IMG/VR virus record: IMGVR_UViG_3300027754_000037
DNA from: a virus
Lineage: Duplodnaviria > Caudoviricetes
Length of the DNA stretch: 64,000 nucleotides
Direction: 5' to 3' (one strand)
In this document: in pieces, positions 960 through 62,823 of the stretch
Position numbering within the stretch: the stretch's first letter is position 1
Layout: each line of letters opens with the position of its first letter
The notes under the pieces: model-generated
Told to the model about the DNA's origin: nothing
The model's input: only the letters and a program-made list of their open reading frames with translations
The model's database searches: none
Position numbers and translations under genes: made by a program

Positions 960-1567
960 TGCTCGTGCGACACATTATTTGGAATATCATTAATGACTAT
1001 TTTCTTAATATTAGGAAATTTCGTTTTAACCTCAGGAACAAATTCCTTAAATTTAAGTATTTGATCTGGTCTATCTTCGTGAATTTCAAGTGTTTTATAA
1101 TTTGGGTTCAAGAGACCCATAATAAAATTGAATTTAATTTCAAAAGTGCTGCTGCCAACAGTTCCCGGTTGGCCAGTCAGGAAATATCCGTCCATTTTGA
1201 GGTCAGCATGATCAAGAATCTGCGTAATCCTGCGACGAAACTGGTTGGGACGACCCGTCATCAACACAACGGTAGCTTCAGAATCACTTAGATCATTCTT
1301 ACAGCTTTCAACTGACTTGGTGATATACCATTCTGGTCCCGGCATTTCAGGAACCAAGGGAGGCGACAAAGTTTCTAGCCTGCCCCACCATCCACGATGA
1401 GGCCAAGGATATCCAGTTATATCTTTATATAAAACCTTACCAGTATCTGAGTCTGGGGAATGAAACAAAGTGCCATCGAAGTCGTAGATGATCAATCTAG
1501 ACACATTAACTGCGCTCTCGTTCAGTCTATTCTGGCAATATTCCTTAAATCTTGATATTTTAGCCAT
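956..1567 (-). CDS. HAD-superfamily phosphatase, Swiss-army-knife RNA repair-like (HAD_SAK type)
   Basis: IIYDFDGTLFHSP (DxD motif I), WW motif, LMTGR (motif II), IHEDR (motif IV). Confidence 0.8.
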   Translation of the reverse strand: MAKISRFKEYCQNRLNESAVNVSRLIIYDFDGTLFHSPDSDTGKVLYKDITGYPWPHRGWWGRLETLSPPLVPEMPGPEWYITKSVESCKNDLSDSEATVVLMTGRPNQFRRRITQILDHADLKMDGYFLTGQPGTVGSSTFEIKFNFIMGLLNPNYKTLEIHEDRPDQILKFKEFVPEVKTKFPNIKKIVINDIPNNVSHEH

Positions 1568-3038
1568 TTTGCTTGCTTCTTAAGTCATTCCAGCGGTTGG
1601 TCATCAAAGTGCGCTTAATGGCATCAAATTCGCCACCTACTGGGGTTCTGCCCATGAACTTGAGATAAAGAGGGTTGATCTTCCTTTTGCCGTCATCTTC
1701 GCTTTGATAGGGAGAAAGATCACCGCTGTCAAAACTGAGGAAGGTATCCACATCGGGATTGTGGGCCTTTGCCATCTGCATCCAATCCTTGATCTTGGAC
1801 CTAGTCAAACCGCTGTGGGTTTGAACCATATCATAAAACTGATCGGGATCAAACTTACCTTTCGACCATTGGAATAACTTAACCAAGTAAACCACATCGT
1901 TAGCTTCTTGTTTAGACCAACCGCCTTGCAATAGAATCTGACGAACATCGTCAGGATTGTTGTTGCGCATGGTCCAAGCAGCCGACATCCATCTGTCGTT
2001 CCTGAGTTCTTCCGGCAAGTCGTCTCCGCTAAATTCAATATTCGGGAAAATTAAATTCAACAAACCAGAATCTGAAGCTGTCTTCATATATTTTCTGGCA
2101 TCAGTATCTGGATTTTCTAAACCCTTGACAAACTCTGTCTTGGCACAGCCCGAGGGCAATTTCCAGTCTTTGTGAGCTTTGACGACACTCATATACTTGT
2201 CTGGAAGTGAATTGCCTTTTCCAAAACGATTGAAGTGGTTTAGCAAGCGAAATGCCGTCATGGGATCTTCCTTCATGCGATCACCAAACTTCTCTCCAAC
2301 AGCCTTGATCTCACCAGACTTCAAATGATTGGCACCGCCGAATGGATCAATCAGATCGCTGTTGGGACCATCTTCGTTGGTCAAGGGAATATACATGGAG
2401 TTGATGGTGAAGTCACGATTTGATGCATCTTCCTCGATGTTTGCTGCGCTCATGGCATCATCTGGTGTGAAGTTTTTGCTTTTGGGAGACTTAGAAAGTG
2501 TCGAAAGAATAAAGGGTTGGCCATTCACCTCAGCCGTAATCTCCATTTCCTTGCTTTTTTTGTCCCACTTGCTGGCATAGAAAACTTTGTTCTTATTGCC
2601 AGCAACAGGCAGGCTGGAATAATTCTTGATAGCTCCGTGGCTGGGTTTGACCTCTTTGAAACCATTTTGAGACAGAATCATTCTGATTTCGCTTGGTGTA
2701 GCATCTGTGACCAGATCATAGTTGTTGGGAGTTTTTCCCATGAGGTGGTCACGAACTGCACCTCCTGTCAAATACAGAGATTTCTTTTTGAGTTGAGGTT
2801 CAACTTCGCCTTTGTTTTTTTCAATCGTCGTGTAGCCAACAGTCACCTTGTTGGAATTTGTAAATGCCTTGACGACCTTGGCAAGATTGGCATGATTGGA
2901 CTTATCAATCATGAATGGCGTGAATTCCTTATCGCCACCTTCCTTCTTTTGGAGCTTGATTTTTGCGGTAACGCCTGTGACTGGCTCCGCTTCTTTTTCT
3001 TCTCTAAATTTCAAATAATCTGAGAAATAATGTGCCAT
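1560..3038 (-). CDS. Class II tRNA nucleotidyltransferase/poly(A) polymerase family protein with altered catalytic motifs
   Basis: LYLTGGAVRDHL, NYDLVTDA, EEDASNRDFTINSM, DPFGG, EDPMTAFR. Overlaps the downstream HAD gene by 8 nt. Confidence 0.85.
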   Translation of the reverse strand: MAHYFSDYLKFREEKEAEPVTGVTAKIKLQKKEGGDKEFTPFMIDKSNHANLAKVVKAFTNSNKVTVGYTTIEKNKGEVEPQLKKKSLYLTGGAVRDHLMGKTPNNYDLVTDATPSEIRMILSQNGFKEVKPSHGAIKNYSSLPVAGNKNKVFYASKWDKKSKEMEITAEVNGQPFILSTLSKSPKSKNFTPDDAMSAANIEEDASNRDFTINSMYIPLTNEDGPNSDLIDPFGGANHLKSGEIKAVGEKFGDRMKEDPMTAFRLLNHFNRFGKGNSLPDKYMSVVKAHKDWKLPSGCAKTEFVKGLENPDTDARKYMKTASDSGLLNLIFPNIEFSGDDLPEELRNDRWMSAAWTMRNNNPDDVRQILLQGGWSKQEANDVVYLVKLFQWSKGKFDPDQFYDMVQTHSGLTRSKIKDWMQMAKAHNPDVDTFLSFDSGDLSPYQSEDDGKRKINPLYLKFMGRTPVGGEFDAIKRTLMTNRWNDLRSKQNG

Positions 3039-3092
3039 GTGACATCCCTAGCTGTAAGATTGTAAATTATTTAGCCGTTTATCCTGTATTTT

Positions 3093-3401
3093 TCAATCAT
3101 TCGGAGGACTTTGTAAATTCAAGAAGTAAAGTATCGTGCCTCCTATTACCATCAAGGCAATTTTCCATAGACTATCGAAAATTCTGCCCCAAATACCATC
3201 GACAGCTTCTAATTTTTTTTGCATCACATCTAAACTATGTTTAATGTCCTTGATTTCATTATTAATAATGAGAATATCTTTGTCAATACTCTCGTTTTTT
3301 TCAGTATGATTTTCTAAAGACTTAACGATGGTTGTGATGCGTTCATCGTGCCTTGTCACTATGTCAGAAACATCTGAAGTTGTTTTCTTGGCTGGTGGCA
3401 T
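3093..3401 (-). CDS. Coiled-coil protein with one C-terminal TM helix (holin/XhlA-like architecture)
   Basis: Heptad-rich N-terminal part, then IALMVIGGTILYFLNL. Confidence 0.55.
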   Translation of the reverse strand: MPPAKKTTSDVSDIVTRHDERITTIVKSLENHTEKNESIDKDILIINNEIKDIKHSLDVMQKKLEAVDGIWGRIFDSLWKIALMVIGGTILYFLNLQSPPND

Positions 3402-3441
3402 AATTTTCCATTTCTATTAACCCGACCCTATATATTTAGTG

Positions 3442-3951
3442 ATGAGTAATACAACAAAAATTGAAGAAAAAACAGAAGTTGTCATCATCGAAGAGTCCGA
3501 ATCTTCGTTTGAGCAACGAGTTGATTCCATGCTGCCAAAAATGAATGTGAGCATCCCAGAGAACTCAGGGCCACCGGCAGATGCTTTGATCAGCGACCAG
3601 CATTATTTAACGGTGTTGGACGAGATCATGAACAACATCCGTGACGACCGCAAGCAGGTTGATGATTTTTTGTCAACTTTCGCAAATATGGTCATAAATG
3701 ACGGCGATGCCACCACATCCAGCAAGGAGGCGATGGTCAATCTCGTGAAAACCAAGGTTGATCTTCAGGACAAGATGCTGAAGGCAGCGGACTTGATGAC
3801 AAGGCTGAAATTGAAAAACACTTATGCTTATTCTGGACCACATTTGAACGCCCTTCAGCAAAACAACATAAATATTGGTACGGATAACACAACTTTCAAT
3901 CGAAAAGAGCTTATTAGAGCCATCAATCAAGCGAAGAAGAAAAAGGATTAA
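3442..3951 (+). CDS. Helical hypothetical protein; possible terminase small subunit
   Basis: Helical-hairpin core (NIRDDRKQVDDFL...KEAMVNLVKTK) and an NNINI tail, loosely like TerS architecture. The product call is weak. Confidence 0.4.
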   Translation: MSNTTKIEEKTEVVIIEESESSFEQRVDSMLPKMNVSIPENSGPPADALISDQHYLTVLDEIMNNIRDDRKQVDDFLSTFANMVINDGDATTSSKEAMVNLVKTKVDLQDKMLKAADLMTRLKLKNTYAYSGPHLNALQQNNINIGTDNTTFNRKELIRAINQAKKKKD

Positions 3952-3953
3952 TT

Positions 3954-5276
3954 ATGTCAAGGCACGCACTCGAAGAATGGCTGGTAGAAGCAAGTGGCGA
4001 TGTTCCGGGCGGTCAATCTCCTATGGGACAGCCAGATTTCCCTCCTATGGGTGGTCCTCCTCCCGGCGACCCAAATGCCGCCAATCCTCCTGCTCCCAAT
4101 ATGGCTCCACCCGGTGCTGCACCCCAGCAGAATTCTCCAGATGCTGAGAAAAAAGCAGCAGAAATGCCCGATGTCAGCAAGGACCCCCAATCTCCCGACA
4201 TGCCCGAAAAAGCATCCGATCAGGATTTTGAAACTTGGAAAAACGAATTTTTCAAAGAAAGCGTCAAGGGAGATGTCGGCAAGCTAATCGAAATGGTCCA
4301 GCAAATTAGGGATGCGGAATTGGAAGCCTATCCCCGCAAATTCGTGGAAGATAACCTTCAAATTTGCTTTCTGCGCCAAAATGCCAACATTGAAAAGGCA
4401 GGAAAGGCTATTCGCAACAACATCAAGCAGAATCTCGACCAGAATAATCCCTCTGTTTCCCTTGTGAACCACCTACTAAGCGCTCTTCAAGTGACTCCAG
4501 AATTGAACAATGTATTCATCAAGCTGAAAGGTCTTCTGGGAATGAAGGGCGACCTTCACCGCAAGTACATGGCGAGCCTTCTTGGAGCAGTACAGGTCGG
4601 TACTGGTGGCAACAACGAAGACATCATTTATAACGAGCGTGATTATTCAATTCGCATTTCGACCCGCTTCAATGATAAGTGGGGAAGAGTCGATATCGGT
4701 AAATGGAGCCTAAAAGAAGACGATCCCGAGCGTTATCTCACCGAGCCTGAGCAAAAGAGAATGGAAGAAGGCAGTCCTGAGGAGAAAGATGTTCTTCGAC
4801 GCAGAGTGGTGATGGAGTCGATTGCCGAGGGTTTCAAGAAAAGAAGCTTTATGATTCATGTTGTAGGACAGGATGGTACTGTTGCCACACTTGGTTGGGA
4901 TTTATCTGGTAGCTTGAAGAGTGCTTATACCTCAGGAAAGCTGGTTGTAAAAACAATTCAGAGTGATAATTCCGAAGCCATGATTGATGATGACGGCGAA
5001 ATCATCCCTTACATGGACATCAAGATCAAATATGTGAAAGATGCCGATGGTGGCGTTGACGAAGATGGCAAGCCAGCCAAGGAAGATCATGATTTCATGG
5101 AGCGGATTGACGGAATGCTATTCCTGACCGCTCAATACAAAATTCTGAAGGAAGCTGCTTCAAGCTTCAGCGGTATTGTCCTGAAGGAAACGCCCTATAC
5201 CGGCAATCCGAGCGACCTGAAGACCATCATGCGCTGTGTTCCAAGTGCTCCTGAGCTTTTAATGAGGAATTGCTGA
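3954..5276 (+). CDS. Hypothetical protein with Pro-rich disordered N-terminus
   Basis: 440-aa ORF tightly packed between its neighbours; no motif recognised. Confidence 0.75.
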   Translation: MSRHALEEWLVEASGDVPGGQSPMGQPDFPPMGGPPPGDPNAANPPAPNMAPPGAAPQQNSPDAEKKAAEMPDVSKDPQSPDMPEKASDQDFETWKNEFFKESVKGDVGKLIEMVQQIRDAELEAYPRKFVEDNLQICFLRQNANIEKAGKAIRNNIKQNLDQNNPSVSLVNHLLSALQVTPELNNVFIKLKGLLGMKGDLHRKYMASLLGAVQVGTGGNNEDIIYNERDYSIRISTRFNDKWGRVDIGKWSLKEDDPERYLTEPEQKRMEEGSPEEKDVLRRRVVMESIAEGFKKRSFMIHVVGQDGTVATLGWDLSGSLKSAYTSGKLVVKTIQSDNSEAMIDDDGEIIPYMDIKIKYVKDADGGVDEDGKPAKEDHDFMERIDGMLFLTAQYKILKEAASSFSGIVLKETPYTGNPSDLKTIMRCVPSAPELLMRNC

Positions 5277-5277
5277 T

Positions 5278-5754
5278 ATGCGACAATTTTTAGAATTCGT
5301 AGACCGCAAACAGCGTGAGACCAAACGACAATTGAAATTGGTCGAGAAGGCTTTGCGTAAAGGCAACTTCCATGTTTACTCCCATCTTGAAGATGATGAT
5401 CCTTATCTTTTCGTGAGGAGCCCTTCAAAAAAGCTTAGCTTTGAAGGAATCCGTGTTTACACGATTGGAGATCAAGTTGCCTATCGTGTTCAAAAAATGG
5501 AAAAAACCGAGCCTTATGGCAAATCTTATTCCTTGAATATCGAAGACATGTTCAATGACTACATGGGAGAGGACATGGACGAGGAAGAGGCTGGGAAAAA
5601 GGTTGTTGAGAGCATGGTCTCTGAATTGAAGAAGTTTTTTAGCAAGAGCGAGGAAGCTGAAGAGGAAATGAGATCGAAGACCGGAGATGGAGTTGGTCTG
5701 ATTGTTAAGACTGGCGGCAGCGATTACAGCAGTACGGTACTAAATAGGTTGTAA
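5278..5754 (+). CDS. Hypothetical protein (possible head-packaged protein)
   Basis: 158-aa ORF with N-terminus MRQFLEFVDRKQRE. Confidence 0.75.
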   Translation: MRQFLEFVDRKQRETKRQLKLVEKALRKGNFHVYSHLEDDDPYLFVRSPSKKLSFEGIRVYTIGDQVAYRVQKMEKTEPYGKSYSLNIEDMFNDYMGEDMDEEEAGKKVVESMVSELKKFFSKSEEAEEEMRSKTGDGVGLIVKTGGSDYSSTVLNRL

Positions 5755-38468: not shown

Positions 38469-39950
38469 ATGTTGAGATTTAGAGATTATCGCAACAACTC
38501 GAGGGGCGTTGAGCTCTACGAGGCAGAAGTCGCTTCTGATCCGGCAATAAATGCAGCAATTGAAAAAATTGTTGATGACTGGATCGGTGAATTAAAGAGC
38601 GAACTTCTAAGTGGAGAAGGACTTAAAACACCCGGATTGTGGGATCGTTTCAAAAATTCTCTTGCCAATTTCTGGCATGGTGCCTATAGCGACAAAAATC
38701 CCTACCGTCATAGGAATATGTACGGCAATCTCGGTGCAACTACGGAATCTGTTGACAATAGGCTGTCTCTGGATGAATATAAAATTCTAAGAGAATGCTG
38801 TGATCTGCTCGAAGAGGAAGTCAAAACAGCAGCGCCAGCAACAGACCAGAATTCAAAGCTGAAGCTTGTTCAGATCATTAACAAACACGCCAAAAACTTG
38901 AAAGACAGATTGATCAAGGTTTTGACGGGAGCATATGTTCCTGCTCTAAAAAAATTCCATATGCCTTCTTTGAGCTCCTTCCCCCGAAAGATAGAACCCA
39001 TCACTCCTCCCTCAGATACAGTAGACCCAAGCGCAAAGCCCGACACAGAGGTAGAAAAAGAACCTACTGAAGAACCAAAAGAATTTAGTTACACCGAACC
39101 ACCAACCCAAGGAATTGCATGGGCTTCTTTAAATGCTCGTCAAAAAATGGCTTGGAATAAATATGGTGGTGGTGCAGTATCAAGAAGTGAACGCCATAAA
39201 GGAAAATTCCCGTTGCAAGGAAGATTCCCGTTGCCTTGGATTCTTCGTCTAGGAGATCCTAGAAAAGATATGCTTTCTTTGAATACTTCAAGATCGCTTA
39301 TTCGAGATAAGAGACTCGAACTCGATTCGGATTTGATTAACTCCAAAGAAAAACTAGAATCTCGTGTTGAACATTCCAAGACTATTTTTGCAAATAGGAA
39401 GAAGCGTTCTGCCAAGCCAGATGCAGAAATGCCTTCAGAGCCACTTGCTGACACGCCCTCTCCAGAAAACAAAAAGCGTAAACAGCCTCGTCCAGATGTT
39501 GAAACCCCATCTTCCGATGCTGAAAAAATATCTGCTGATTTAGGTCGCCCAGAAGACTCAGAATCAGAAGCTCCCGATGTTGCTACGACTTCTGATTTCA
39601 GAGATGAATCTGAAGAGACCGAAGAAGATAAAGCAACAAATACGCTAAATCGTCTTGTAACCGACTGGTCTGTTGAAGAAGAAAGAAAAAAATTAATCGA
39701 GACTGCAAGAAAAATGAATCTTGACAATTTAAAGGATGAAATAATTAAAATGCTTCAAGCCCATGTTGATGCAGAGCCAGAAGGCGACAGTAAAACTTAT
39801 CATCAAAATGAATTAGATAAAGTAAAAGTACAAAATATTGGAAAAATTGAGGAATTAGACAAGACAGCACGCCTTCTTCTTGGCATTCTGCCTACTTTTG
39901 AAGCCAGAAAGTATTTTGTCAATAAATTCAGACAATTAGTTCATGGCTGA
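38469..39950 (+). CDS. Hypothetical protein (possible head-packaged protein)
   Basis: 493 aa, GGAG RBS, N-terminus MLRFRDY...LYE, acidic Pro-rich linkers. Confidence 0.75.
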   Translation: MLRFRDYRNNSRGVELYEAEVASDPAINAAIEKIVDDWIGELKSELLSGEGLKTPGLWDRFKNSLANFWHGAYSDKNPYRHRNMYGNLGATTESVDNRLSLDEYKILRECCDLLEEEVKTAAPATDQNSKLKLVQIINKHAKNLKDRLIKVLTGAYVPALKKFHMPSLSSFPRKIEPITPPSDTVDPSAKPDTEVEKEPTEEPKEFSYTEPPTQGIAWASLNARQKMAWNKYGGGAVSRSERHKGKFPLQGRFPLPWILRLGDPRKDMLSLNTSRSLIRDKRLELDSDLINSKEKLESRVEHSKTIFANRKKRSAKPDAEMPSEPLADTPSPENKKRKQPRPDVETPSSDAEKISADLGRPEDSESEAPDVATTSDFRDESEETEEDKATNTLNRLVTDWSVEEERKKLIETARKMNLDNLKDEIIKMLQAHVDAEPEGDSKTYHQNELDKVKVQNIGKIEELDKTARLLLGILPTFEARKYFVNKFRQLVHG

Positions 39951-44928: not shown

Positions 44929-45244
44929 TTTGCATCTCTTGGTTATCAGGCAAATCAAAACTCTGTGACTTTTTCTTCTGAATATCTTCAAGTTTGCGCT
45001 TTTCGTTCATGAGCTCATTTTCGATATTCTGTAATACATTTACAGAGCTTTGCGAAGATACAAGCTTGTTTTCTTTTCTCTCCAGCCTTTGCTTTTGCCT
45101 GCTGCCTCTCTTGCTCTCCACATTTTCGACAACCTGCAAAGCCTTGCTCAATAAACCTCTGACTTCTTGCAAAGCAAAATCTTCAGGGATGTTTTTTAAG
45201 GCTTGTAAAATACAAATTTTTAATCCAGCCGTGTTATTTTTCAT
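44915..45244 (-). CDS. Coiled-coil hypothetical protein
   Basis: Overlap-coupled to both neighbours. Confidence 0.65.
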   Translation of the reverse strand: MKNNTAGLKICILQALKNIPEDFALQEVRGLLSKALQVVENVESKRGSRQKQRLERKENKLVSSQSSVNVLQNIENELMNEKRKLEDIQKKKSQSFDLPDNQEMQNVFG

Positions 45245-46214
45245 TTTGCCCTTTCTTAACCAGTTCAAGCCAACGAACTGGTGCATCTTCTACTAAATGA
45301 TAACTCAACATATCGCCTTCGTGTAACGAACTGATGAGATACTCCTTAGGCAATTTAACACGCCAATAGTCAATATTTTCATCAATAATCATATTGGTCA
45401 GAGTAGTTCCTTCTGGGAGCATGGTTTTATATCCCAAAGCTATTTCCTTCTTTTTTTGCTCAAACAATCTTCTCTTTGCAGTAGGTTGAGGCATGTACAA
45501 AGAAATAATTTGTTTATAGTTTGGATTTTCCTGCAATTTTTTCATCAAAATTTGGTACTGAGTGCTGACTCTATCGGGTAAATTATTGCTTACAAAATTC
45601 TCAGCTTTAAATCCTTGATGCGTATGAGTTAATGTAAAAAGGGCAGGATAAATTCCATTAATTTTGACCAACATGGAATCTACAATCAAGCCATCCTCTG
45701 GCAGAATTGCTTCTAACTCAATTGAATTGCTTAATTCCAATTGCTCGGTAATCATTTCGAGCTTTGCCACAACCTGATTAAAAAGAATATTGCATTCTGT
45801 AACAAGACTGTTTACCACTATATCGACATCTATAGGACCAAAACTTTCTCCGAGATGTTTGGCTTCAAAGTTTTGAATCAACTCTTCAACTACAGCTAAA
45901 TTTGCTGAATTTATTCCATGAATTTTGACCCATGATCTACAACGAGTCATATTCTTCTCTAAACTGTTTATGCTTCCAGATTTAGCAGCTATGCAAAATG
46001 CTTCTATATACGGATAGGCAATTGATTCAAGGTTTTTCTTGATTTTATTTACATCGAGAATATTTTTGACCATATCCGTTGCATCTTGGTTCTTAAGAAT
46101 CAAGGACGAAAAGTTTGCCAAAATGTTTTCTCGATAATTTTGACAACAGCATCTTATTTTGCACCGAGATTCTTGTTTTTCACGAAGGAAATCTGCAAGT
46201 TTTTTTATTGGCAT
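45234..46214 (-). CDS. Hypothetical protein
   Basis: ATG 1 nt after the TerL stop; about 326 aa. Confidence 0.7.
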   Translation of the reverse strand: MPIKKLADFLREKQESRCKIRCCCQNYRENILANFSSLILKNQDATDMVKNILDVNKIKKNLESIAYPYIEAFCIAAKSGSINSLEKNMTRCRSWVKIHGINSANLAVVEELIQNFEAKHLGESFGPIDVDIVVNSLVTECNILFNQVVAKLEMITEQLELSNSIELEAILPEDGLIVDSMLVKINGIYPALFTLTHTHQGFKAENFVSNNLPDRVSTQYQILMKKLQENPNYKQIISLYMPQPTAKRRLFEQKKKEIALGYKTMLPEGTTLTNMIIDENIDYWRVKLPKEYLISSLHEGDMLSYHLVEDAPVRWLELVKKGQNEK

Positions 46215-46215
46215 T

Positions 46216-48066
46216 TTACCACCCGAACTCTTTGAGTATTTTATGAGCACGCCTCTGTTGAGTCATAACGACCCCAGACATATAGTTTTCATTATCTGGT
46301 GCTAAAATATCTAACTCGCTATCCATTAAAATTTCCTCTGGCCTACCTTCAAGCAATTCTCTTTTTATATCTTCATACACCTGAGCTTTGACTATCGGCA
46401 TAGGCAATGTAGCTTGACCTCCCACGGGCAAATCTCTCAACATAGAATCACGAACAAACAATCCAATGCACATCGCCATGATAGCATCATCGTGCTTGCC
46501 CTTTTGTGCCTGAGCTTTTCTTGCAACCTTATTGAATTCAAAGGTTTGCAACTCGGTCACAAATCTCATGCTATTGATGCGAAGAGTGCCATTCAAAAGT
46601 CTGCTTTGCAAACTTTCCAAATACAAAGAGCGATTTACCTGACCAATTTTTACTCCGGGTTTAGCATTTGCTTTATTTGATTCAAAATAAAGATTGTCAT
46701 ATTGTAAGCTATGCTGCAAAGCACTTAGGACTGCACCTCCGGGACCCATATTCTCTACAACAACTAGAGAATTGTAGTAGTAAATTGCAACTTCTTTTAC
46801 TACCTGAGCAAATTCATAAGGCACAATTATATTGCTGTAAAATTCAGCAACCTGCTCTAGAGTTGCCGTATCAACTATGTGAAATACGCTGCTATCATTA
46901 TTTTCGCCCTGACCTTCAGCGCAGTCGGCACTCAAGATATATTCGTGTCCATCAACTGGTTCTTTCCAAACCCACAAAGCGCCTTTATTTAAATCATCGT
47001 CCAACTGTGAAATACGACCTATTGGATTGCTCCATTTGGCAAACATCTTTCTGCTGGGATTATTGCTCCTACATTGTTCAGTCAAAGATGTGATTACACT
47101 TGTGGGAAAATATGTTTCACCCGAACCTTGAAACTCACGCAAAACCTCTTGACGAAAACCCTTCTCGCCAAGCTGCGCCTTTTGTTCTGCTACCCAATCT
47201 TCATCGTTGTAGTCTGGATGTTGCCAATAATCCAAATCAATAATATTGAAACGATTGTTGCCTTCTCTTGCATCGTGATATGTTTGTTCATACCAGTTTC
47301 CCAAACCATTGACCGTCGAAACCAAGGTGCAAGAACCACCTGTTGACAGGATAGGCCACATAGCCTTCCAATGCTTCTCCATGTCGTCGATGAACGCTGC
47401 TTCATCAACTATAAGAAATGTAACGGACTTACCACGAGCAGCTTCGGGTGAATAAAACTTGCAGACAGAACCAGTATCCGTAAACATTTTCAAGTGGTCG
47501 TTCCACTTGGCATCTTTTCTAGGCTTCAGCCATTCGGGCATGTTTTCACATGATCTGTCAACCATCATGCCAATATCTGTAGCTTCACGGTCGGTCTTTG
47601 AGATCAACATGATCTGCTGATCTAACTGAAACATGCAACGCCACAAACCCCACAACAAAGTAACTGTTGTCAGACCTCCCTGCCGGAATTTAGAAATGAT
47701 GTTGAACCTATTTTTCTCATAATCATGAATGGTTTTTTTCTGATATTTGAATAAAATAAATGGAATCAAACCCCGCATGGGATGCAAAATCTTGACATAC
47801 TTATGACAAAAATATGAAAAACTTTCAGTACACTTGATGATTTCCTTTTTTCTGCGTGCTGTATCATAATTTTCAACGGCATCCATCGGCTCATCTGGAT
47901 CGATTTCAAGCTCACATTTGTTGAATTCGTAGTATCGTGGATCAAATTCATAACGACCAGTATTTGGGTACATGTTTCCACCCAACTGGTAATATTCTTT
48001 CAAAGATTTGAAATTGCCACGCCAAACTGATTCCTTGACGCTTTTAAAAAATGTTGGCTGATCCAC
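46216..48066 (-). CDS. terL: Terminase large subunit (T4 gp17-like)
   Basis: FCHKYVKI.HP, YQ Q-motif, KFRQGGLTT Walker A variant, LIVDEAAF Walker B, STVNG, SADCAEG and HDDAIMA nuclease motifs. The exact start is uncertain. Confidence 0.95.
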   Translation of the reverse strand: MDQPTFFKSVKESVWRGNFKSLKEYYQLGGNMYPNTGRYEFDPRYYEFNKCELEIDPDEPMDAVENYDTARRKKEIIKCTESFSYFCHKYVKILHPMRGLIPFILFKYQKKTIHDYEKNRFNIISKFRQGGLTTVTLLWGLWRCMFQLDQQIMLISKTDREATDIGMMVDRSCENMPEWLKPRKDAKWNDHLKMFTDTGSVCKFYSPEAARGKSVTFLIVDEAAFIDDMEKHWKAMWPILSTGGSCTLVSTVNGLGNWYEQTYHDAREGNNRFNIIDLDYWQHPDYNDEDWVAEQKAQLGEKGFRQEVLREFQGSGETYFPTSVITSLTEQCRSNNPSRKMFAKWSNPIGRISQLDDDLNKGALWVWKEPVDGHEYILSADCAEGQGENNDSSVFHIVDTATLEQVAEFYSNIIVPYEFAQVVKEVAIYYYNSLVVVENMGPGGAVLSALQHSLQYDNLYFESNKANAKPGVKIGQVNRSLYLESLQSRLLNGTLRINSMRFVTELQTFEFNKVARKAQAQKGKHDDAIMAMCIGLFVRDSMLRDLPVGGQATLPMPIVKAQVYEDIKRELLEGRPEEILMDSELDILAPDNENYMSGVVMTQQRRAHKILKEFGW

Positions 48067-55363: not shown

Positions 55364-55392
55364 AAGCCCAGCTTTTCGCTGGGCTTATTTTT
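55364..55392 (+). terminator. Intrinsic terminator
   Basis: AAGCCCAGC-TTTTC-GCTGGGCTT followed by ATTTTTT. Confidence 0.8.
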
Positions 55393-55489
55393 TCGATATT
55401 CAAAAATCAACTCATATATATTTTAGTATTATATCAAGATAAATATTATGACAACATCGAACAATACTCTTAACATGACAAGGAGGTTC

Positions 55490-56206
55490 ATGAAAAGATT
55501 TTTTGCGTTTTTTGCTGCTGTTGCGACAGTTTTGCCTGCAATAGCACAAGCGCCATCAGTTGACGATATAAGAAATCGTCAATACCCAAATGTTTATCTG
55601 GCAGCAGACACTAATCCCATCGCAGCCATCGAAGGCGCTGTCGATGAAGATCTTGCTGATGTCATGGTCCCAGTTCCCATAAAGGATAGGGTCTTCAATA
55701 AAACCGGCATTCAATGCGTCTGGGCTTCTACAGAACTACTCGGCAGATATGCCGAAGAGCCTAAACTGATCGGACTTACCAACGATTCTGAATGCAAAAG
55801 CTACGCAAACACATACAGTTTTTCACGCAAAATGAAACAACTCAATGTCAAATTTGAAACAACCACGGACCCCCGTGACCGTAGCCTTATCATCAAAAGC
55901 GTTGTCAAAGAACGCCGTGGTTGCCTGTTCTGCATCCCCGGCCACGCTATGGTCTTAGTCCACTATGATGAAAAAAAAGGCATCGTTAAATATATCAACA
56001 ACAGCGATAGAAGCCTCGCTATCAGAACTTGGACTATGGCAGAATTCAACCGCCACTTCGATGGATGGGTTTCAGCAGTTTACGCTGATAACGACATCGT
56101 CCCCTTAAAATACACTCCTAAAATTCCAGACCTACCCATCATCGACCGTGGACAGGAAAAACAAGCTTACGACAAGGAATACATCCTGCAACCTTTGAAG
56201 CAATAA
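55490..56206 (+). CDS. Secreted papain-like (C39-like) cysteine peptidase
   Basis: AGGAGG RBS, AQA signal peptide, QCVWAS (Cys), GHAMVL (His), YINNSD. Confidence 0.7.
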   Translation: MKRFFAFFAAVATVLPAIAQAPSVDDIRNRQYPNVYLAADTNPIAAIEGAVDEDLADVMVPVPIKDRVFNKTGIQCVWASTELLGRYAEEPKLIGLTNDSECKSYANTYSFSRKMKQLNVKFETTTDPRDRSLIIKSVVKERRGCLFCIPGHAMVLVHYDEKKGIVKYINNSDRSLAIRTWTMAEFNRHFDGWVSAVYADNDIVPLKYTPKIPDLPIIDRGQEKQAYDKEYILQPLKQ

Positions 56207-56209
56207 ACT

Positions 56210-56240
56210 AAACCCGCCCTAAAAAGGCGGGTTTTTATTT
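56210..56240. terminator. Terminator between convergent genes
   Basis: AAACCCGCC-CTAAAAA-GGCGGGTTT followed by a T-rich tract. Confidence 0.8.
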
Positions 56241-56468
56241 TTTCTTGTCGCAATTACAGTCTTTTTTCATATAGCGAATCTTGTTTTTGCGGTTTTTTGC
56301 TGTAATTGGGAGTTCATTGTCCGAATATGTGGGAAATGCTCCCGGTGCAATCATTCTCTTGGCAACTCCATCGCCACCATCGCCCTCGTCCTCCACACTA
56401 GAAGGATCGTTGGCGCTCCCGCCAAACCACTCTTTTTTGTTCAGATAATCAAGGAAAGATTGCTTCAT
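56235..56468 (-). CDS. Small hypothetical protein (possible head-packaged protein)
   Basis: N-terminus MKQSFLDYLNKKE; CTATATA 6 nt upstream. Confidence 0.7.
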   Translation of the reverse strand: MKQSFLDYLNKKEWFGGSANDPSSVEDEGDGGDGVAKRMIAPGAFPTYSDNELPITAKNRKNKIRYMKKDCNCDKKK

Positions 56469-56509
56469 AATGAATATATAGTTTGCCGACATATTTTACA
56501 AGGAGGGTC

Positions 56510-57580
56510 ATGAAAAACGATTTTTCAAAACTGATGCTGATTGGAATCTTATCCCTTGCCTTAGTCTTAATATTTAATCTAAAAACAAAGTCTTACCCTG
56601 AGCCTAAAGTTGCTCAGGTTCCAAAAAAAATAGTTCCTGAAGCAGGACCGCAAACATATCCAGAACCAAAATCTCCACAGATTTCCAACCCTATTCCAAA
56701 ACACCTCTCCTATCCTCAAACCGTCGAACAACTTAAAAATTGGAATAAAGAAGCTCCAGAACTCACAGAAGTTGGCATATACGGCCAATCTAAAAAGGGC
56801 ACAGACCTGTTTTATATTCGAGTCAATAATAAATTAGATAAAAATACCAAACCAGTCATTCTTATTACAGCTTGCATTCACGGAAATGAATCATGGAGCG
56901 CAGGTATCACTATGGGATACTTGGGCAATTTACTCAAGAATTATTCTACCGATCCCAAAATAAAAGCACTCATAAATTCTCGTGATATTTATTTTATTCC
57001 AGTTGTTTCTCCCGACAGTTATACCCAGCAGAGATTTGTTGATGGAGTTGATCCCAACCGTGACTTCCCCACTCCTAAAAACAAAACACACCAAAGCACT
57101 CCCAGCGTTGCTGCACTCCGTGAATTCTACTGGAAAATTAAACCACACGCAGTTTTGTCAGGACACACATACGGCAGGCTTTTTCTCATTCCTTACGGCG
57201 ATCAATATGGGAAAAATTCCAACCAATCTGATTATGATGCGATTGTTGGCAAAATGGCTAAAATGGCCAATTACAAAATGATTCATTGCGTTGAACTTTA
57301 CAAATCACCAATCGACGGTACTGAAGTTGACTGGTTCTATCGAAACGGCAGCTTTGCTGCTGTTATCGAATACGGCACCCACCAACACAAACCCAGTCTG
57401 CAAGAAATTAAAGACGAACTTAAGTGCACCCAAGATGCAATTACATATTTCATAGAAAAATCACCAGATATCAAAATTACTACGGTAGATAATGAAATTG
57501 ACTTTAGCCAGAACACAGGAATTGCAAAAGAATATCACCGCAACTCCGATGGTGCTCTAAAATCAATTAATCCTCACTAA
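56510..57580 (+). CDS. Membrane-anchored/secreted M14 zinc carboxypeptidase
   Basis: AGGAGG RBS, TM anchor; ACIHGNE (HxxE), VDPNRDF, SGHTYG, VIEYG. Confidence 0.9.
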   Translation: MKNDFSKLMLIGILSLALVLIFNLKTKSYPEPKVAQVPKKIVPEAGPQTYPEPKSPQISNPIPKHLSYPQTVEQLKNWNKEAPELTEVGIYGQSKKGTDLFYIRVNNKLDKNTKPVILITACIHGNESWSAGITMGYLGNLLKNYSTDPKIKALINSRDIYFIPVVSPDSYTQQRFVDGVDPNRDFPTPKNKTHQSTPSVAALREFYWKIKPHAVLSGHTYGRLFLIPYGDQYGKNSNQSDYDAIVGKMAKMANYKMIHCVELYKSPIDGTEVDWFYRNGSFAAVIEYGTHQHKPSLQEIKDELKCTQDAITYFIEKSPDIKITTVDNEIDFSQNTGIAKEYHRNSDGALKSINPH

Positions 57581-58165
57581 ATTCTGAGTCATAAGATAAA
57601 GATAACGCTCATAGGAATCCCTCAAAACATTCATCTCCTTGGGCGTTATCGCATCTAAATTGAATGTTCTCTGAAAAGGAATCAATAAATTTGGATCAAA
57701 ATTGATACTTGTTTTTAGTCCTAAATATTTCTCAAGCAAACCAATACCACGACTACTTGCCAAATCATCATATGTCAATAACAATGACCCCGATGATTTT
57801 TTTGACATTTCATAAAGTCTGCGTAACCTAAAACTGTAATACCTGCAAGCAAATGATGGATTTCTTTTTTCGTTGCCAATCATATAGCCCATCACAGCTT
57901 CCGGTTCTCTCAACACAAATATTAACTTGCAGTAATCATAAGCCGATTTGGTACTAATTTGATGATTCCTTACAACCTCGTCCAAAAAAATTGCTGATTT
58001 ATTGCCTAATTTATGATGATTTTTTGTTAGATAATAGAAATTCAAGGGGCTTTCATATCTGTTTTTGTTTCTAAAACCCTGAATCCTAATATGATCATTC
58101 AACGACTCATATAAGGCTGTCGATCCTGAATACTCATGACTGCAAATTAAAACTATTTTTTTCAT
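57563..58165 (-). CDS. Sulfotransferase-fold protein, divergent
   Basis: IVLICSHEYSGSTALYESLNDH, IFVLREP, LLLTYDDL, LEKYLGL. Confidence 0.6.
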   Translation of the reverse strand: MKKIVLICSHEYSGSTALYESLNDHIRIQGFRNKNRYESPLNFYYLTKNHHKLGNKSAIFLDEVVRNHQISTKSAYDYCKLIFVLREPEAVMGYMIGNEKRNPSFACRYYSFRLRRLYEMSKKSSGSLLLTYDDLASSRGIGLLEKYLGLKTSINFDPNLLIPFQRTFNLDAITPKEMNVLRDSYERYLYLMTQNLVRIN

Positions 58166-58236
58166 AATGTCCTTTGGAAGAAAAATACCTTTACTTTGAT
58201 AACTAAAACAAGCGTGATTATGCAAGGGAACTAAAA

Positions 58237-61200
58237 ATGGCTCCGTTATGGTCTGATTTTTTCAAGCTTTTTTCCTACTCCAGCGAAGCCGATCCGCTCG
58301 CTCGCCGTAAAGATCCCCGTCAATTCAGTTCCGCAGGCATCAGCCAACCAGAAGCTATCGGCGCAGATATCAACAATCCGCAGAATGTAAGCGGAGGACT
58401 CAGCAGCTACCGCCAAACAAATGACATGATTGACACCACTACGCTGTCAAATCGTGCTATGCGTTATAAAGAGTATGAAAGACTTCGTAATGTTCCAGAA
58501 ATCGAAGCTGCCATGACCGTCTTTGCAGACGAATCTTGTGTTGCCGGTAACACTAAAATTGCCACTCCCTTTGGATTTATCACCATCAAGGAGCTCACAG
58601 AAAAAAGAGCCGACGAAAGATTTCTTGTTTATTGCTATGATTTTGAGAAAAAAGACTACACCTTGGGCTGGGCATACTCTCCACGAATCGTAAAGCGTGC
58701 CCCCACCATCACAGTCGTCCTCGATGATGGATCAACATTCACAGCCACAGAAGACCACCGTGTTCTGAAAAAAGACGGTACTTGGTGCGAAACAGGAGAC
58801 CTTGAAGTCGAAGATGAACTCATGCCCTTTTACCGTGTGAAAGCCAGCCAAAATCACACCAGACTGAGAACAGCACAATACCCCAGAATCTACACCAAAA
58901 ATAAAGGCTGGATTCACGAAAGACAATTTGTAGACGACTGGAGAACAGGCAAAATAACTCCAAAAATGCAAGCCGTAAATCTGGGATGTAGACTATACGC
59001 AGATGGACTTAAAACTGTACAAGTCGCTGAAAGACTTGGACACGATTGGAGAACAGTTGGAGAATGGCTCGCACGAGAGGGATTTACTACCAAGGAAATT
59101 AAAAGACTCAATCGATTTGAAAAAGAAAGAAGAATCATAGGCATCGAACCCGGACCAGTTCAGGATGTCTACGACCTCTCCGTCGAAAAACACATGTGCT
59201 TTGCCACCGATAGCGTCATTCTCCACAACTGCCAGAAAGACGAAAATGGCAATATTATCAAAATTACCACGGAAAACCAAGATATAAAAGATGAGATTGA
59301 TTTTCTGCTCATGAACCGCAAAATGCTCAACCTCAACAGAAATGCATGGGTTTGGTTCAAAAATCTCTGCATTTCAGGTGACTATTTTGTTGAACTCGTA
59401 ATCAATCCAGAAAATCCCAAAGAAGGCATATACAGAACCATGCCTCTCCCATGCGAAACAATGTATCGCATCGAAACAGTCAAAGGCAAAATTATTGAAT
59501 ATCAACAAAGCAAAGAAGGACCAGATTATCAAGCCATCGTGCGTGGCTCCGTAAACGATATGACCGATACAGAACTCAACCAAACAACAGCTATACGCTT
59601 TGCACCAAGCCAAATCGTTCACTTCCGAATCGGTGATGATCGCAAAACCTTCTATCCCTACGGCCAATCCCTAATCGAACCAGCCCGTGGACCAGCACAT
59701 AGTCTCAGAATGCTAGAAGATGCTATGGTTGTGTATCGACTTTGCCTTGTTGGCGATACAGTCATAAGTTTACAAAACGGAACAAAAAATATTCGTGATA
59801 TCAAGGTTGGCGACACAGTCCTATCCTACGATTGCGACGGAAAATTGATTCCAACCAAAGTCGTTTGTCATGTTAACAACGGAATTCAAAATGTTTTCTC
59901 AGTCAATAGCAAGCACATTGAAATCGTTGGAACAGCAACACATCCCTTACTCGTTAATCGTCAAGGCGTATTGCAATATGTCGATATTCAAGATTTGATT
60001 CCAAAAACCGACAAGCTCATTTGCGTTACAAGAAATGACAATGTATTGACGCAAATACCCAAGTCTACTAAAGAACCTTGGGCCAAACTTTCCTCAGAAA
60101 TGCGAACCGCATTTAGAAATGGAAATTATGAAAATATTTCCAAACTTCTCAAAAATTGCAAAGTAAAAGATAACAGAGCCAAACAGTTTTTGTATGCCGA
60201 AAGCAAAGCCTTGCCTATCAATTTAGCCAAAAATGTTTGCGATATTTTTGAACTCGATCACTCAAAACTCATCATCACTAAAAAAAGTCAAGTTTATTCT
60301 GAAAAAATCAATCTTCCAAAATTTGTTGATGAAGAATTTGCAAGATTGTTTGGATTCTTGATTGGGGATGGTTCCATTTCAAGAAAATTATGCAGAATTG
60401 TTTTTTCTGCTGGCGAAAAGCAAGAAGTCAATCAAAAGTATGCAGGCCTGCTGCAAAAGTATTTTGGTAAGGTATCATACAACCCAGATAAACGAGGAAA
60501 ATTTGGTAATTACTGCGTCTCATCCGCAAGAGGCGCTGAAATTTTCTTGGAATTGGGCTACATCCCCGGAGCAAAAAACAAAAGAATTCCACAATGGGTG
60601 TTTACATCCAACCCCGAAATTCGCAAAGCTTTTGTAGAAGGAATTAGTGATGCTCATGGTTGCCAAAGAACAACATTCAAGGGAACTTGGTTTTCCACGA
60701 TTGAAATTTGCAACAAAGAACTTGTGAAAGACATCAAAAGCGTTTGGGCATCAATCGGTCTTTCTTCTGGTAAAATTAAAGAAAGACAAAGAAAAGGTGG
60801 TCACGAAATCACCAAAAATAGTTTGATGAAATCTACCACATCACATTCCATAACAATAAGCGAAAAAGAATTGCCTCAGTATGAAAATGTTTGTAGCATC
60901 ACGCCCTGTGGTCAAGAAGAAGTTTATGACATCACGGTAGACAATGAACTACACAATTTCATAGCAAACGGTACACCTACCCATAACACACGGGCACCTG
61001 AAAGAAGGGTTTTTTATATTGATGTTGGCCAATTGCCTCCTTTCAAAGCTGAAGCTTTTATGGACCGCATCAAGGATCAATTCCGCAAAAGAAAAGTCAC
61101 TAGCAACAGCGGAAGTCCCGGAGCAAACCAAGTTGAAGAAAAATGGATGCCTCCAGCACAAGACGAAGACTACTGGTTGCCAATTCGTCCAAATAGCAAC

Positions 61201-62013
61201 ACAAGAATCGATACACTACCCGGTGCTGAAAATCTGGGAGAAATCGATGATGCAGTTTATTTCCGAAATAAACTCCTCACGGCTCTCAACTTTCCCAAGA
61301 ATTACTTCAACAATGAAGACCCCGGCGCTACAAGAATTACCCTCTCAGCACAAGATGTTAAATTTGCTCGCATGATCGAGAGACTTCAAAGCTACTTTGA
61401 AGACGGAATCATGGAAATAGCAGAAAGACACCTTCAACTCAGAGGATACCCAGAAGATAGCTACAAGGACCTCCGTATCAAAATGACCCCTCCAAGCGAT
61501 TGGAGAGAACTCTCAAGAGCAGAAGTTGTAAATGCCCGATACGGCAATGCCGGAACACTCAAAGGCAGTCAGTTAATGTCAGATTTTGACATCATGACAA
61601 AAATCCTCAAATATAACCAAGATGATGCCGACGAAATGCTGGCACGCCTCAAAATCCAAAAGCTTGAAGACCTCAAACTGCAAGTATTGGCCCAAAATCC
61701 ACAACTTCTGGGTGTTGGAATCCCAAGTGCCGAAGGCCAAGACCAAGAACTTGGTGCAGAAGCAGGTGGACCTAACTCTATGCCAGAACCCGGAGGCGAA
61801 GGAACTCCACCTGAAGGAGAACTTCCTCCTGAAGCACCGCCCGAGGGCTTGCCAGTACCATCCGAAGGACCGCCATCAGAAAAGGCTGGTACGGCAGAAC
61901 CAGTCAGCATCGCTGAACCCACAGATGATGATATCAAGAAATATGATCTGGAATTACAAGGTTTCGATATTGAATCCGACCTTGAAGACATCGACTTCAG
62001 CGTGAGGAGCTAA
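58237..62013 (+). CDS. Portal protein (T4 gp20-like) carrying two inteins; mature size about 612 aa
   Basis: LRMLEDAMVVYRL|TRAPERRVFYIDVG, QDEDYWLPIR, GAENLGEIDDAVYFRNKLLTALNFP. Confidence 0.96.
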   Translation: MAPLWSDFFKLFSYSSEADPLARRKDPRQFSSAGISQPEAIGADINNPQNVSGGLSSYRQTNDMIDTTTLSNRAMRYKEYERLRNVPEIEAAMTVFADESCVAGNTKIATPFGFITIKELTEKRADERFLVYCYDFEKKDYTLGWAYSPRIVKRAPTITVVLDDGSTFTATEDHRVLKKDGTWCETGDLEVEDELMPFYRVKASQNHTRLRTAQYPRIYTKNKGWIHERQFVDDWRTGKITPKMQAVNLGCRLYADGLKTVQVAERLGHDWRTVGEWLAREGFTTKEIKRLNRFEKERRIIGIEPGPVQDVYDLSVEKHMCFATDSVILHNCQKDENGNIIKITTENQDIKDEIDFLLMNRKMLNLNRNAWVWFKNLCISGDYFVELVINPENPKEGIYRTMPLPCETMYRIETVKGKIIEYQQSKEGPDYQAIVRGSVNDMTDTELNQTTAIRFAPSQIVHFRIGDDRKTFYPYGQSLIEPARGPAHSLRMLEDAMVVYRLCLVGDTVISLQNGTKNIRDIKVGDTVLSYDCDGKLIPTKVVCHVNNGIQNVFSVNSKHIEIVGTATHPLLVNRQGVLQYVDIQDLIPKTDKLICVTRNDNVLTQIPKSTKEPWAKLSSEMRTAFRNGNYENISKLLKNCKVKDNRAKQFLYAESKALPINLAKNVCDIFELDHSKLIITKKSQVYSEKINLPKFVDEEFARLFGFLIGDGSISRKLCRIVFSAGEKQEVNQKYAGLLQKYFGKVSYNPDKRGKFGNYCVSSARGAEIFLELGYIPGAKNKRIPQWVFTSNPEIRKAFVEGISDAHGCQRTTFKGTWFSTIEICNKELVKDIKSVWASIGLSSGKIKERQRKGGHEITKNSLMKSTTSHSITISEKELPQYENVCSITPCGQEEVYDITVDNELHNFIANGTPTHNTRAPERRVFYIDVGQLPPFKAEAFMDRIKDQFRKRKVTSNSGSPGANQVEEKWMPPAQDEDYWLPIRPNSNTRIDTLPGAENLGEIDDAVYFRNKLLTALNFPKNYFNNEDPGATRITLSAQDVKFARMIERLQSYFEDGIMEIAERHLQLRGYPEDSYKDLRIKMTPPSDWRELSRAEVVNARYGNAGTLKGSQLMSDFDIMTKILKYNQDDADEMLARLKIQKLEDLKLQVLAQNPQLLGVGIPSAEGQDQELGAEAGGPNSMPEPGGEGTPPEGELPPEAPPEGLPVPSEGPPSEKAGTAEPVSIAEPTDDDIKKYDLELQGFDIESDLEDIDFSVRS
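58537..59229 (+). mobile_element. Intein 1 (231 aa) with no intact homing endonuclease; HTH-like insert
   Basis: Starts CVAGNTKI, has a TATEDHRVL block B, ends VYDLSV...ILHN; the +1 residue is Cys. Confidence 0.93.
59743..60987 (+). mobile_element. Intein 2 (415 aa) with a LAGLIDADG homing endonuclease domain
   Basis: Starts CLVGDTVI, TATHPLL block B, LFGFLIGDG and FVEGISDAHG motifs, ends VYDITV...PTHN; the +1 residue is Thr. Confidence 0.95.
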
Positions 62014-62267
62014 TGGATCAGACACCCTTGCAACAACTCATGAGCCTTGTATTTAAAAACAAAAGACTCGTCCAGCAGTCAACACAAGCTGGATGTATCT
62101 TTTGTTGCAAGGTATACGAAAGCAAAGACATCACAAAATACACGGATAATGATCAAACATGCCTATGTCCAAACTGCGGTACTGATGCCGTGCTGGGAGA
62201 CATGGGAGGCTACACAATCAACGAGGAAAATCTAAAAAAAGCCAATCAATACTGGTTCAAATACTAA
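62013..62267 (+). CDS. Small zinc-finger protein
   Basis: AGCIFCCKVY...CLCPNCGTDAVLG. Confidence 0.75.
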   Translation: MDQTPLQQLMSLVFKNKRLVQQSTQAGCIFCCKVYESKDITKYTDNDQTCLCPNCGTDAVLGDMGGYTINEENLKKANQYWFKY

Positions 62268-62623
62268 TTTGTATCGCTAGAGTAACCGTCCGCTGAATGA
62301 GGGGCCAAAGCATCAGGCTCCTGACCAGTCTTGTCTCCAAGTCCCTTCTCCGTGAAGTGAGGATTCATTTTTGGACGCATATCCTGAAAACTATCCAACT
62401 TGTGACGAGTCAATATGGCCTTGATATCGGGATCGTTGCGGTATTGGTTCAGAAAACTTATAATAATTTCAGGCCTTGTGTCGATAATTCTTTTCAAAGC
62501 ATCCATAGCTATATCTAAGTTCTGTTTCGACTGAGGATCATAACCATTGTGGTCCTTGGAGCTTGACTCACCGTCATATGCTGCCACTTCCTTCTGGACA
62601 ACAAACTCCTCAAATGTTTTCAT
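62264..62623 (-). CDS. Hypothetical protein (possible internal head protein)
   Basis: N-terminus MKTFEEFVVQKE closely matches the T4 internal-protein capsid-targeting sequence. Confidence 0.75.
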   Translation of the reverse strand: MKTFEEFVVQKEVAAYDGESSSKDHNGYDPQSKQNLDIAMDALKRIIDTRPEIIISFLNQYRNDPDIKAILTRHKLDSFQDMRPKMNPHFTEKGLGDKTGQEPDALAPHSADGYSSDTN

Positions 62624-62823
62624 ATTTTTCCTCAAATTTAAGTCCAATTGCATACTTATATACTAGAAGGATTTAAAAATAACGATTATTGGTGCGAATT
62701 TGACTCTTGAGGTATACATACTGTCATTAAGAAAGCAATTGTGTTTCTTTGGAACATAAGCAAGTAAGCGCCGTAACGCATGAGTATTCAGACTTTAACA
62801 AGCATAGAGGGAGTCAATTGATT

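Follow-up and report, generated by a model that had tools for sequence, protein, structure and literature searches.

Do unrelated proteins of an uncultured phage share an N-terminal signal which sends them into the phage head? The question is raised by a 64,000-nucleotide stretch of viral DNA (IMG/VR record IMGVR_UViG_3300027754_000037; Duplodnaviria, Caudoviricetes), the whole of which is referred to here as the window. An earlier note on this DNA had listed eight proteins with N-termini similar to the capsid-targeting sequence (CTS) of the phage T4 internal proteins (IPs), among them a pair of putative RNA end-modifying proteins, and had suggested that they form a packaged cargo which is delivered at infection. 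By sequence comparison we found that the leader family is real, conserved and modular, and that it probably tags five window proteins strongly (a 119-aa protein, a nucleotidyltransferase (NTase)-like protein, a HAD phosphatase, a 158-aa protein and a 77-aa protein) and two more less clearly (a 326-aa and a 440-aa protein). The explanation we favour, and which we consider reasonably likely to be correct, is that a lineage-specific form of the T4 CTS recurs at these N-termini, the tagged proteins being loaded into the head and the leader cut off. At least seven unrelated window proteins, the NTase and the HAD phosphatase included, would then probably be packed in the capsid.

The phage of the window is an uncultured lake member of the T4 superfamily. 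Using its large terminase subunit (46216..48066, minus strand; phrog_2, E = 2.5e−41) as the query we fetched relatives from IMG/VR at 131 loci, including contigs of 250–570 kb, and two of these relatives were analysed whole: G001 (136 kb, terminase 75% identical) and G003 (533 kb, terminase 66% identical).

All eight peptides of the earlier list were located at plausible start codons: 62623 (minus strand), 5278 (plus), 56468 (minus), 38469 (plus), 46214 (minus), 62824 (plus), 3038 (minus, the NTase) and 1567 (minus, the HAD phosphatase). Three of the eight (62623, 56468 and 46214) lie at internal ATGs of longer open reading frames (ORFs), each of which is supported by further evidence. A shared leader on all eight was borne out in part: 62623, 5278, 56468, the NTase and the HAD phosphatase are strong members and 46214 is a probable one, while 38469 and 62824 dropped out. 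The consensus of the leader family is M-x(1-6)-[F/Y/L]-x-[D/E/K]-[F/Y/W]-[L/V/I]-x(1-5)-[K/R]-E or, anchored on the first aromatic, F-[K/R/S]-[E/Q/D]-[F/W/Y]-[L/V/I]-x-x-[K/R]-[E/D]. The first aromatic stands 2–8 residues past the Met, most often 3, and the second is often Trp. At motif+8, a position which lies outside the defining pattern, 14 of 38 leaders have Glu and 28 of 50 have either Glu or Asp, with Lys or Arg ahead of it.

The most T4-like member is the leader MKTFEEFVVQKE (62588–62623) of an IP-like gene encoding 119 aa (62264..62623, minus strand), situated between the portal and head-core genes; it is near-identical to the MKTFKEF of T4 IPI. Its orthologs start exactly at MKTF (MKTFQQYLNIKE, MKTFEEYVSLKE) and one reads (TTG)KKFIDYVKLQE, which supports a start inside the longer ORF 62264–62653. 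This family evolves fast, with only 3 homolog clusters among 5.8 billion proteins. The 158-aa protein, which has no assigned function (5278..5754, plus strand), carries the leader MRQFLEFVDRKQRE at 5278–5319, with MEFFLEFIDRKQRE and MFMEFVDRQQRE in orthologs. The 77-aa protein (56235..56468, minus strand) opens with MKQSFLDYLNKKE at 56430–56468; its start is supported by a TATATATT box 4 nt upstream of the ATG and by the conserved N-terminus of its orthologs (MMTFREYLKMRE, MITSFAEYLKKRE, MEQRFTDWLLKRE). The gene adjoins one for an M14 carboxypeptidase with a signal or anchor (56483–57580), both in the window and in G001.

Two further proteins probably belong to the family. The 326-aa protein (45234..46214, minus strand; leader MPIKKLADFLRE at 46179–46214) has its ATG one base past the terminase stop codon, its orthologs start at the same place, and in all the relatives examined its gene directly follows that of the large terminase. 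In the window copy the first aromatic is replaced by Leu, and across 14 distinct orthologs (21–35% identity, > 25 loci) the pattern hydrophobic (F/Y in 12)-x-x-[F/Y]-[V/I/L/F/C]-x-x-[K/R] is kept. In an AlphaFold2 model of this protein (pLDDT 84) the leader is helical over residues 6–16; compared with PDB folds the model gave no significant match, the best being RnlA at a template modelling (TM) score of 0.22. The 440-aa protein (3954..5276, plus strand), which was absent from the earlier list, carries MSRHALEEWLVE at 3954–3989, followed by ASGD and a Pro/Gly-rich linker. Its orthologs, MSRHALDSWLTE/ASGD and ...NSWFKRKLLE/AGDP, keep the W-[L/F] and the junction of hydrophobic-x-E followed by A. 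Searches of PHROGs and Pfam gave no match for the 440-aa, 158-aa, 326-aa, 77-aa or 119-aa proteins or for a 611-aa head-core candidate described below, and the ESM Atlas held nothing for the 326-aa or 440-aa proteins.

We counted the motif with the regular expression [FYLW]-x-[DE]-[FYW]-[ILVCM], which was derived from the earlier list and was therefore fitted to the window post hoc. The window, with its 20.5 k residues, contains 25 matches, of which 8 fall within the first 20 residues of genes where 1.1 were expected from the rate at internal positions, an approximately 7-fold enrichment (Poisson: P = 2.5e−5). The earlier note had called for a comparison of the first 20 residues with shuffled controls, and by this comparison the motif is enriched over background: none of 2000 composition-preserving shuffles of the window N-termini reached 8, and the real order of residue classes ranked first of 120 permutations. 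The same expression was found 9 times in G001 (1.9 expected) and 25 times in G003 (12.4 expected), again with no shuffle reaching the count and with the real order first of 120 in both genomes. T4, used as a control, showed no comparable enrichment (5 vs 4.2 expected); it should be noted that T4 has only three IPs, two of which fit the expression.

We also scanned all reduced-alphabet 5-mers (2280 patterns) blind to the expression. In the window aromatic-x-acidic-aromatic-aliphatic ranked first (6 vs 0.7 expected, P = 8e−5), a value which fails Bonferroni correction when taken alone, and the statistical weight therefore rests on the relatives. In G001 the pattern polar-aromatic-basic-x-aromatic ranked first (14 vs 1.2 expected, P = 4e−11), in G003 the same pattern ranked second behind signal-peptide-like patterns, and T4 gave nothing comparable. 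A position-specific scoring matrix (PSSM) trained on 50 leaders, solely from G001 and G003, scored six window N-termini at 7.8–16.3, against a 99.9th percentile of 4.3 over 17,806 internal positions; these include the 158-aa protein (7.8), the 77-aa protein (15.5) and a primase which we regard as ambiguous. Owing to a Leu in place of Phe, the 440-aa protein did not reach a significant score. At the motif positions Phe codons are used as they are genome-wide (TTT 38%, TTC 62%) and all six Leu codons occur, and this mixture of synonymous codons indicates that selection acts on the peptide. Leader codons do lean to A/T endings (Lys AAA 79% vs 47% genome-wide, Tyr TAT 80% vs 40%), which is the usual lean of 5′ coding regions.

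The proteins which share the leader are otherwise unrelated. In an all-against-all BLASTP without the first 20 residues no pair of window leader proteins matched below E = 0.1, and the tagged proteins belong to different Pfam families (PF01743, PF10307) or to none. Between 83 and 98 kb of G001 at least 15 of 22 consecutive genes open like MITFKQFLEN, and these 22 genes have no mutual BLASTP hits. The motif persists in orthologs down to 21% identity. Within the window the tagged genes are scattered, at 956–5754, 45–46 kb, 56 kb and 62 kb.

The likeness to T4 which the earlier note had drawn holds at the residues that matter in T4. The T4 leaders (AF158101) are MKTYQEFIAE in IPII and IPIII, MKTFKEF in IPI and MELITELFDE in Alt. 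According to a review of T4 mutagenesis, targeting is governed chiefly by residues 4 and 7 of the CTS (Tyr, Phe) and processing relies on its residues 8 and 10 (Ile, Glu); IPs purify together with gp22, the scaffold protein, and both Alt and the IPs with a CTS act in the host after ejection (PMC9026906); the CTS suffices for loading foreign proteins (PMC9026906, PMC3012670). The conserved positions of our clade (aromatic, aromatic, aliphatic and Glu) are these same four determinants: MKTFEEFVVQKE has its aromatics at 4 and 7 and an aliphatic at 8, and the six other leaders are degenerate versions at offsets of 3–7 from the Met.

The head machinery with which such a leader would have to work is encoded in the same genome. 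Window positions 48237–64000 match base for base the locus L135 (JGI sample 3300009181, Ga0114969_10000002, 239,391 bp), which was fetched via the portal protein. Past the window end the same contig carries the remainder of a 611-aa head-core candidate and, starting approximately 2.4 kb beyond that end, an S77 protease (PF03420; L135:16442–17101), a gp22-like scaffold of 299 aa and a gp23 capsid protein (PF07068); the head gene order is that of T4 (20-67-68-21-22-23), and T4-type head genes are also present in the relatives. Together with a T4-type portal in the window, these genes make a CTS-like route the most economical reading.

By this route the leader would be an N-terminal peptide of 10–17 residues, probably helical, whose two aromatics three positions apart and following aliphatic would dock the nascent protein to the prohead scaffolding core. 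The S77 gp21-like prohead protease would then cut after a downstream hydrophobic-x-Glu, and the mature protein would stay in the head with the DNA. We infer core binding, cleavage after Glu and residence in the virion from the T4 precedent. It is speculative that the mature proteins exit with the DNA into the host, as T4 IPs and Alt do, or that the NTase and HAD phosphatase have any early role there. Candidate hydrophobic-x-Glu sites, as judged by sequence comparison, are L-V-E followed by A in the 440-aa protein and L-R-E in the 326-aa protein.

Several observations weigh against this explanation. A BLOSUM scan with the literal T4 CTS (YQEFIAE) singles out only the 119-aa protein in the window, an enrichment too weak for the claim to be based upon it, and the other window leaders fit a degenerate pattern which was defined after the data were seen. 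The Glu is out of the T4 register, at motif+8 or +10 in most cases vs +6 in T4, and the P3 residue before it is Gln or Lys rather than hydrophobic in the 158-aa, 77-aa and 119-aa proteins. The primase mentioned above scores as leader-like though its packaging would be unexpected, indicating that the pattern alone yields false or ambiguous calls. A predicted complex of the G001 gp22-like scaffold and the G001 IP-like protein scored 0.00 in a run without controls, and counts neither for nor against binding.

The earlier note's statement that both members of the RNA pair bear the leader was confirmed across the clade. The first is a class II nucleotidyltransferase homolog of the CCA-adding enzyme/poly(A) polymerase family (492 aa; 1560..3038, minus strand), strongly tagged with MAHYFSDYLKFRE at 3000–3038. 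PF01743 covers residues 88–244, and CCA-adding enzymes in the PDB match at E = 3e−14, relative to which the phage protein has approximately 60 extra N-terminal residues, giving a layout of leader, linker and enzyme body. The leader is present in 116 of 120 NTase homolog clusters (47–97% identity), with the profile F (116/116)-x-x-[Y/F]-hydrophobic-x-[L/F/I]-[R/K]-E, the Glu being at motif+8 in 115 of 116. Across the 120 clusters the leader is separated from a conserved K-I-K-L-Q anchor by a low-complexity stretch whose length ranges between 18 and 72 residues. This N-terminus combines a conserved tag, a probable hydrophobic-x-Glu cut site and a free linker, as expected of a removable leader.

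The NTase body may be altered in its chemistry. GGAVRD is present (residues 92–97, window 2748–2765) and is followed by N-Y-D (residues 106–108, window 2715–2723) where a class II CCA-adding enzyme has DxD; the N-Y-D aligns to the catalytic D-F-D of E. coli poly(A) polymerase (3aqk). N-x-D was found in 97 of the 106 family members with a readable motif and N-Y-N in a few, and canonical D-V-D paralogs occur in some relatives (L129, L131). Pol-beta-type nucleotidyltransferases which have lost the first carboxylate are usually crippled in catalysis. With this carboxylate lost the NTase may bind RNA ends instead of extending them, and the family may comprise catalytically altered or inactive RNA-binding proteins.

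The second member is a HAD phosphatase of the “Swiss Army Knife RNA repair” type (203 aa; 956..1567, minus strand; PF10307, HAD_SAK_1, E = 4.3e−15), strongly tagged with MAKISRFKEYCQNRLNE at 1517–1567, whose gene overlaps the end of the NTase gene by 8 nt. Motif I with its nucleophile Asp is present in the sequence (YDFDGTLF, residues 28–35) directly past the leader. Approximately 30 of 65 HAD homologs bear the leader (MITFEKFVTIKE, MKTFLDYLCMKE, MSFKKFLLEQE etc.) and many others start 5–10 residues ahead of DFDGTL, so the tag is an add-on outside the fold. The NTase and HAD genes are adjacent and both tagged in G001 and G006 too. Separately, distant HAD_SAK_1 homologs (P0166–P0178) have a different 30-residue N-terminal extension, MRLHLRELRRIIREEIEG..., which may be a targeting or processing leader of another phage lineage.

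The earlier note had suggested that the packaged pair could act against tRNA-cleaving defences before phage expression. This role is weakened because of the N-Y-D in the NTase and because we found no tag on any ligase or kinase in the window. It seems doubtful to us that the clade pre-loads the NTase-like protein (possibly a tRNA-end binder) and the HAD phosphatase via the CTS and ejects them with the DNA to protect or heal tRNA ends, or to block a defence, before phage expression. The model for such a function is T4 PseT (polynucleotide kinase/phosphatase) and RNA ligase 1, which repair tRNA cut by the anticodon nuclease PrrC and which the infected cell makes, none of them being packaged. The clade pair resembles these in being phage-encoded proteins of RNA end-healing families but differs in lacking a ligase or kinase and in the N-Y-D of its NTase, so that its chemistry is uncertain.

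Three other explanations of the leader were weighed. The one which survives best, though we think it unlikely, is that the leader is a real shared amphipathic helix which serves docking to a different phage or host machine (a chaperone, a membrane or an assembly factory) or acts as an oligomerisation or stability tag, with no packaging. In its favour, the leader is linked to the capsid by analogy, the tagged genes are scattered beyond the head module, a replication protein (the primase) has a similar N-terminus and the Glu register is unlike that of T4, the last two points being the chief grounds for caution. However, it would then be a coincidence that the leader matches the T4 CTS at its experimentally defined determinants, that S77 protease, scaffold, portal and capsid genes are in the same genome, that the NTase family has a near-invariant hydrophobic-K/R-Glu ahead of a linker of variable length and that the most canonical member lies within the head gene cluster. 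More improbable still is that the leader does target the prohead but that its cargo consists of assembly or structural components, the NTase and HAD phosphatase being carried along as passengers, or moonlighting, without any part in the onset of infection. The universal linkage of the 326-aa gene to the terminase would suit this, as would the T4 core proteins gp67, gp68 and gp22, which are loaded and cut yet are not effectors, and the loss of the first Asp of the catalytic DxD from the NTase family; against it, the CTS-bearing IPs and Alt of T4 act in the host after ejection, the HAD phosphatase keeps motif I, and the pair is conserved and co-tagged across the clade, suggesting a selected function. 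Least credible is that chance and the N-terminal composition of an A+T-leaning phage (A/U-rich 5′ coding or leaderless-mRNA preferences) produced peptides which were then picked by eye, an account which draws on the A/T lean of the leader codons, the failure of the window-only scan under Bonferroni correction and the failure on inspection of two of the eight listed examples and one hit of the regular expression, but which is largely excluded by the shuffles and permuted orders in three genomes, the G001 scan and the T4 control, the conservation of the motif among orthologs and the codon analysis, including the frequent Trp (TGG) as second aromatic.

A lineage-specific CTS can be set beside several known systems. 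As in T4, a peptide of 10–19 residues, here a predicted propeptide, stands at the extreme N-terminus of unrelated, fast-evolving proteins, its residues 4 and 7 being aromatic and residue 8 aliphatic, with a Glu close by; unlike in T4, the Glu of the clade usually lies two or four residues further on. Where T4 has three IPs, the clade has at least seven tagged proteins in the window and one just past it, recognisable enzyme families among them. T4 Alt, an ADP-ribosyltransferase present at approximately 40 copies in the head, trimmed by gp21 and ejected, is a precedent for a packaged enzyme with a short N-terminal propeptide ending in Glu; its leader sequence differs, however, and it acts on host RNA polymerase, whereas the clade enzymes belong to tRNA nucleotidyltransferase and RNA-repair HAD families. 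The giant phages phiKZ, 201phi2-1 and SPN3US have a prohead protease related to that of T4, which cleaves many of their internal head and ejection proteins after Glu; unlike those of the clade, their propeptides are mostly > 100 residues long with A/S/G-x-E sites, and there is no short shared leader (PMC5694885).

A literature search for leaders of this kind in uncultured huge phages returned no paper. The new elements are the tagged NTase/HAD pair, the conserved tag with its variable linker, the modularity of HAD homologs with and without the tag, the N-Y-D substitution and the triage of individual proteins. Should the leader function as it does in T4, the proteins carried in the capsids of a large group of uncultured huge phages could be predicted by a simple sequence rule. 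The cargo set would then appear to be several-fold larger than that of T4 and would include enzyme families never reported as virion cargo, and since packaged proteins meet host defences first, the list would amount to a catalogue of candidate early counter-defence factors. The NTase, with its near-invariant leader and variable linker, would be a clean natural example of T4-like phages recruiting cargo by adding a tag.

A further leader was observed outside the window: a 296-aa protein encoded next to the capsid gene, approximately 6 kb past the window end (L135:21645–22535, minus strand), has the canonical leader MLNFKEWLYLIE, and its G001 counterpart starts MEFRNFIENA.

Other N-termini were rejected or left as ambiguous. 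The 493-aa protein which starts MLRFRDY (38469..39950, plus strand) is weak and doubtful, its PSSM score of 2.7 (per-position P = 0.002) not being significant and its orthologs being inconsistent (MLTFDEFRG and MLGYKDYKS vs MLKFRKINEN and MLKSRKITEK). The 611-aa protein at 62824..63999 (plus strand; start MKRTLISFDNFKKIEE), which is cut by the window end, is by its position between the portal and the protease a head-core protein; its MKRTLISFDNF is a distinct N-terminus off the leader consensus, conserved as MKRKLISFDVFK..E in at least 17 relatives. At 50134 the ortholog test revealed FNEYL as a chance match within a different, widely conserved N-terminus, MSFYQNxF. The primase (DnaG/Toprim type; 40595–41659, minus strand) starts MAVSFKNFVKWAK and scored 13.7; this N-terminus is kept in all orthologs, is joined directly to the conserved domain without a linker or a Glu site, and is either a look-alike structural helix or that of an unexpected tagged replication protein. 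Also ambiguous is the N-terminus at 52873 (MIKGLINWL), where L-x-N-W-F is conserved. The T4-type portal of the gp20 family (58237..62013, plus strand; PF07230, PF14890, PF14528, PF05204) has a borderline leader-like N-terminus, MAPLWSDFFKLF (PSSM 3.4), and its G001 ortholog starts MPIWSDFFKIF. The window portal contains an intein of approximately 420 residues with a LAGLIDADG homing endonuclease, which the G001 ortholog (835 aa) lacks.

By terminase the nearest database phage is LR756511, an unannotated 595-kb uncultured phage. One baseplate segment searched by megablast against INPHARED gave no match, and neither comparison revealed a close relative among the sequenced phage isolates. A single copy of the T4 late-promoter consensus TATAAATA is present in the window (2.3 expected by chance). 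Looser TATA boxes were also listed and were used solely as support for the start at 56468. The ATGs at 3442 and 56468 lack a Shine-Dalgarno sequence and have CTATATATT boxes (3429–3444 and 56465–56480) 4–5 nt ahead of them.

The window also holds genes for the baseplate, among which a gp6-like wedge and a P2-I-like domain were recognised, and many genes with no assigned function; no tRNA genes were found in it. Between the tagged 440-aa and 158-aa genes and the baseplate genes, directly upstream of the latter, is a gene (6610–13296) for a 2228-aa protein which matched nothing in Pfam or PHROGs. The gene at 44398–44928 (minus strand), which has no leader, gave weak 2H-phosphoesterase signals (Acb1 PF23474, 2_5_RNA_ligase2, LigT), all under curated cut-offs, and may encode a phosphodiesterase acting on cyclic nucleotides or RNA ends. 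The gene at 42488–43384 encodes a protein which has a signal peptide and is weakly trypsin-like, and that at 48051–49253 is M28 aminopeptidase-like, its product having a membrane anchor at the N-terminus. Finally, 36952–37956 encodes an actin-like protein with a full-length Pfam Volactin match (PF25216, E = 6e−64).

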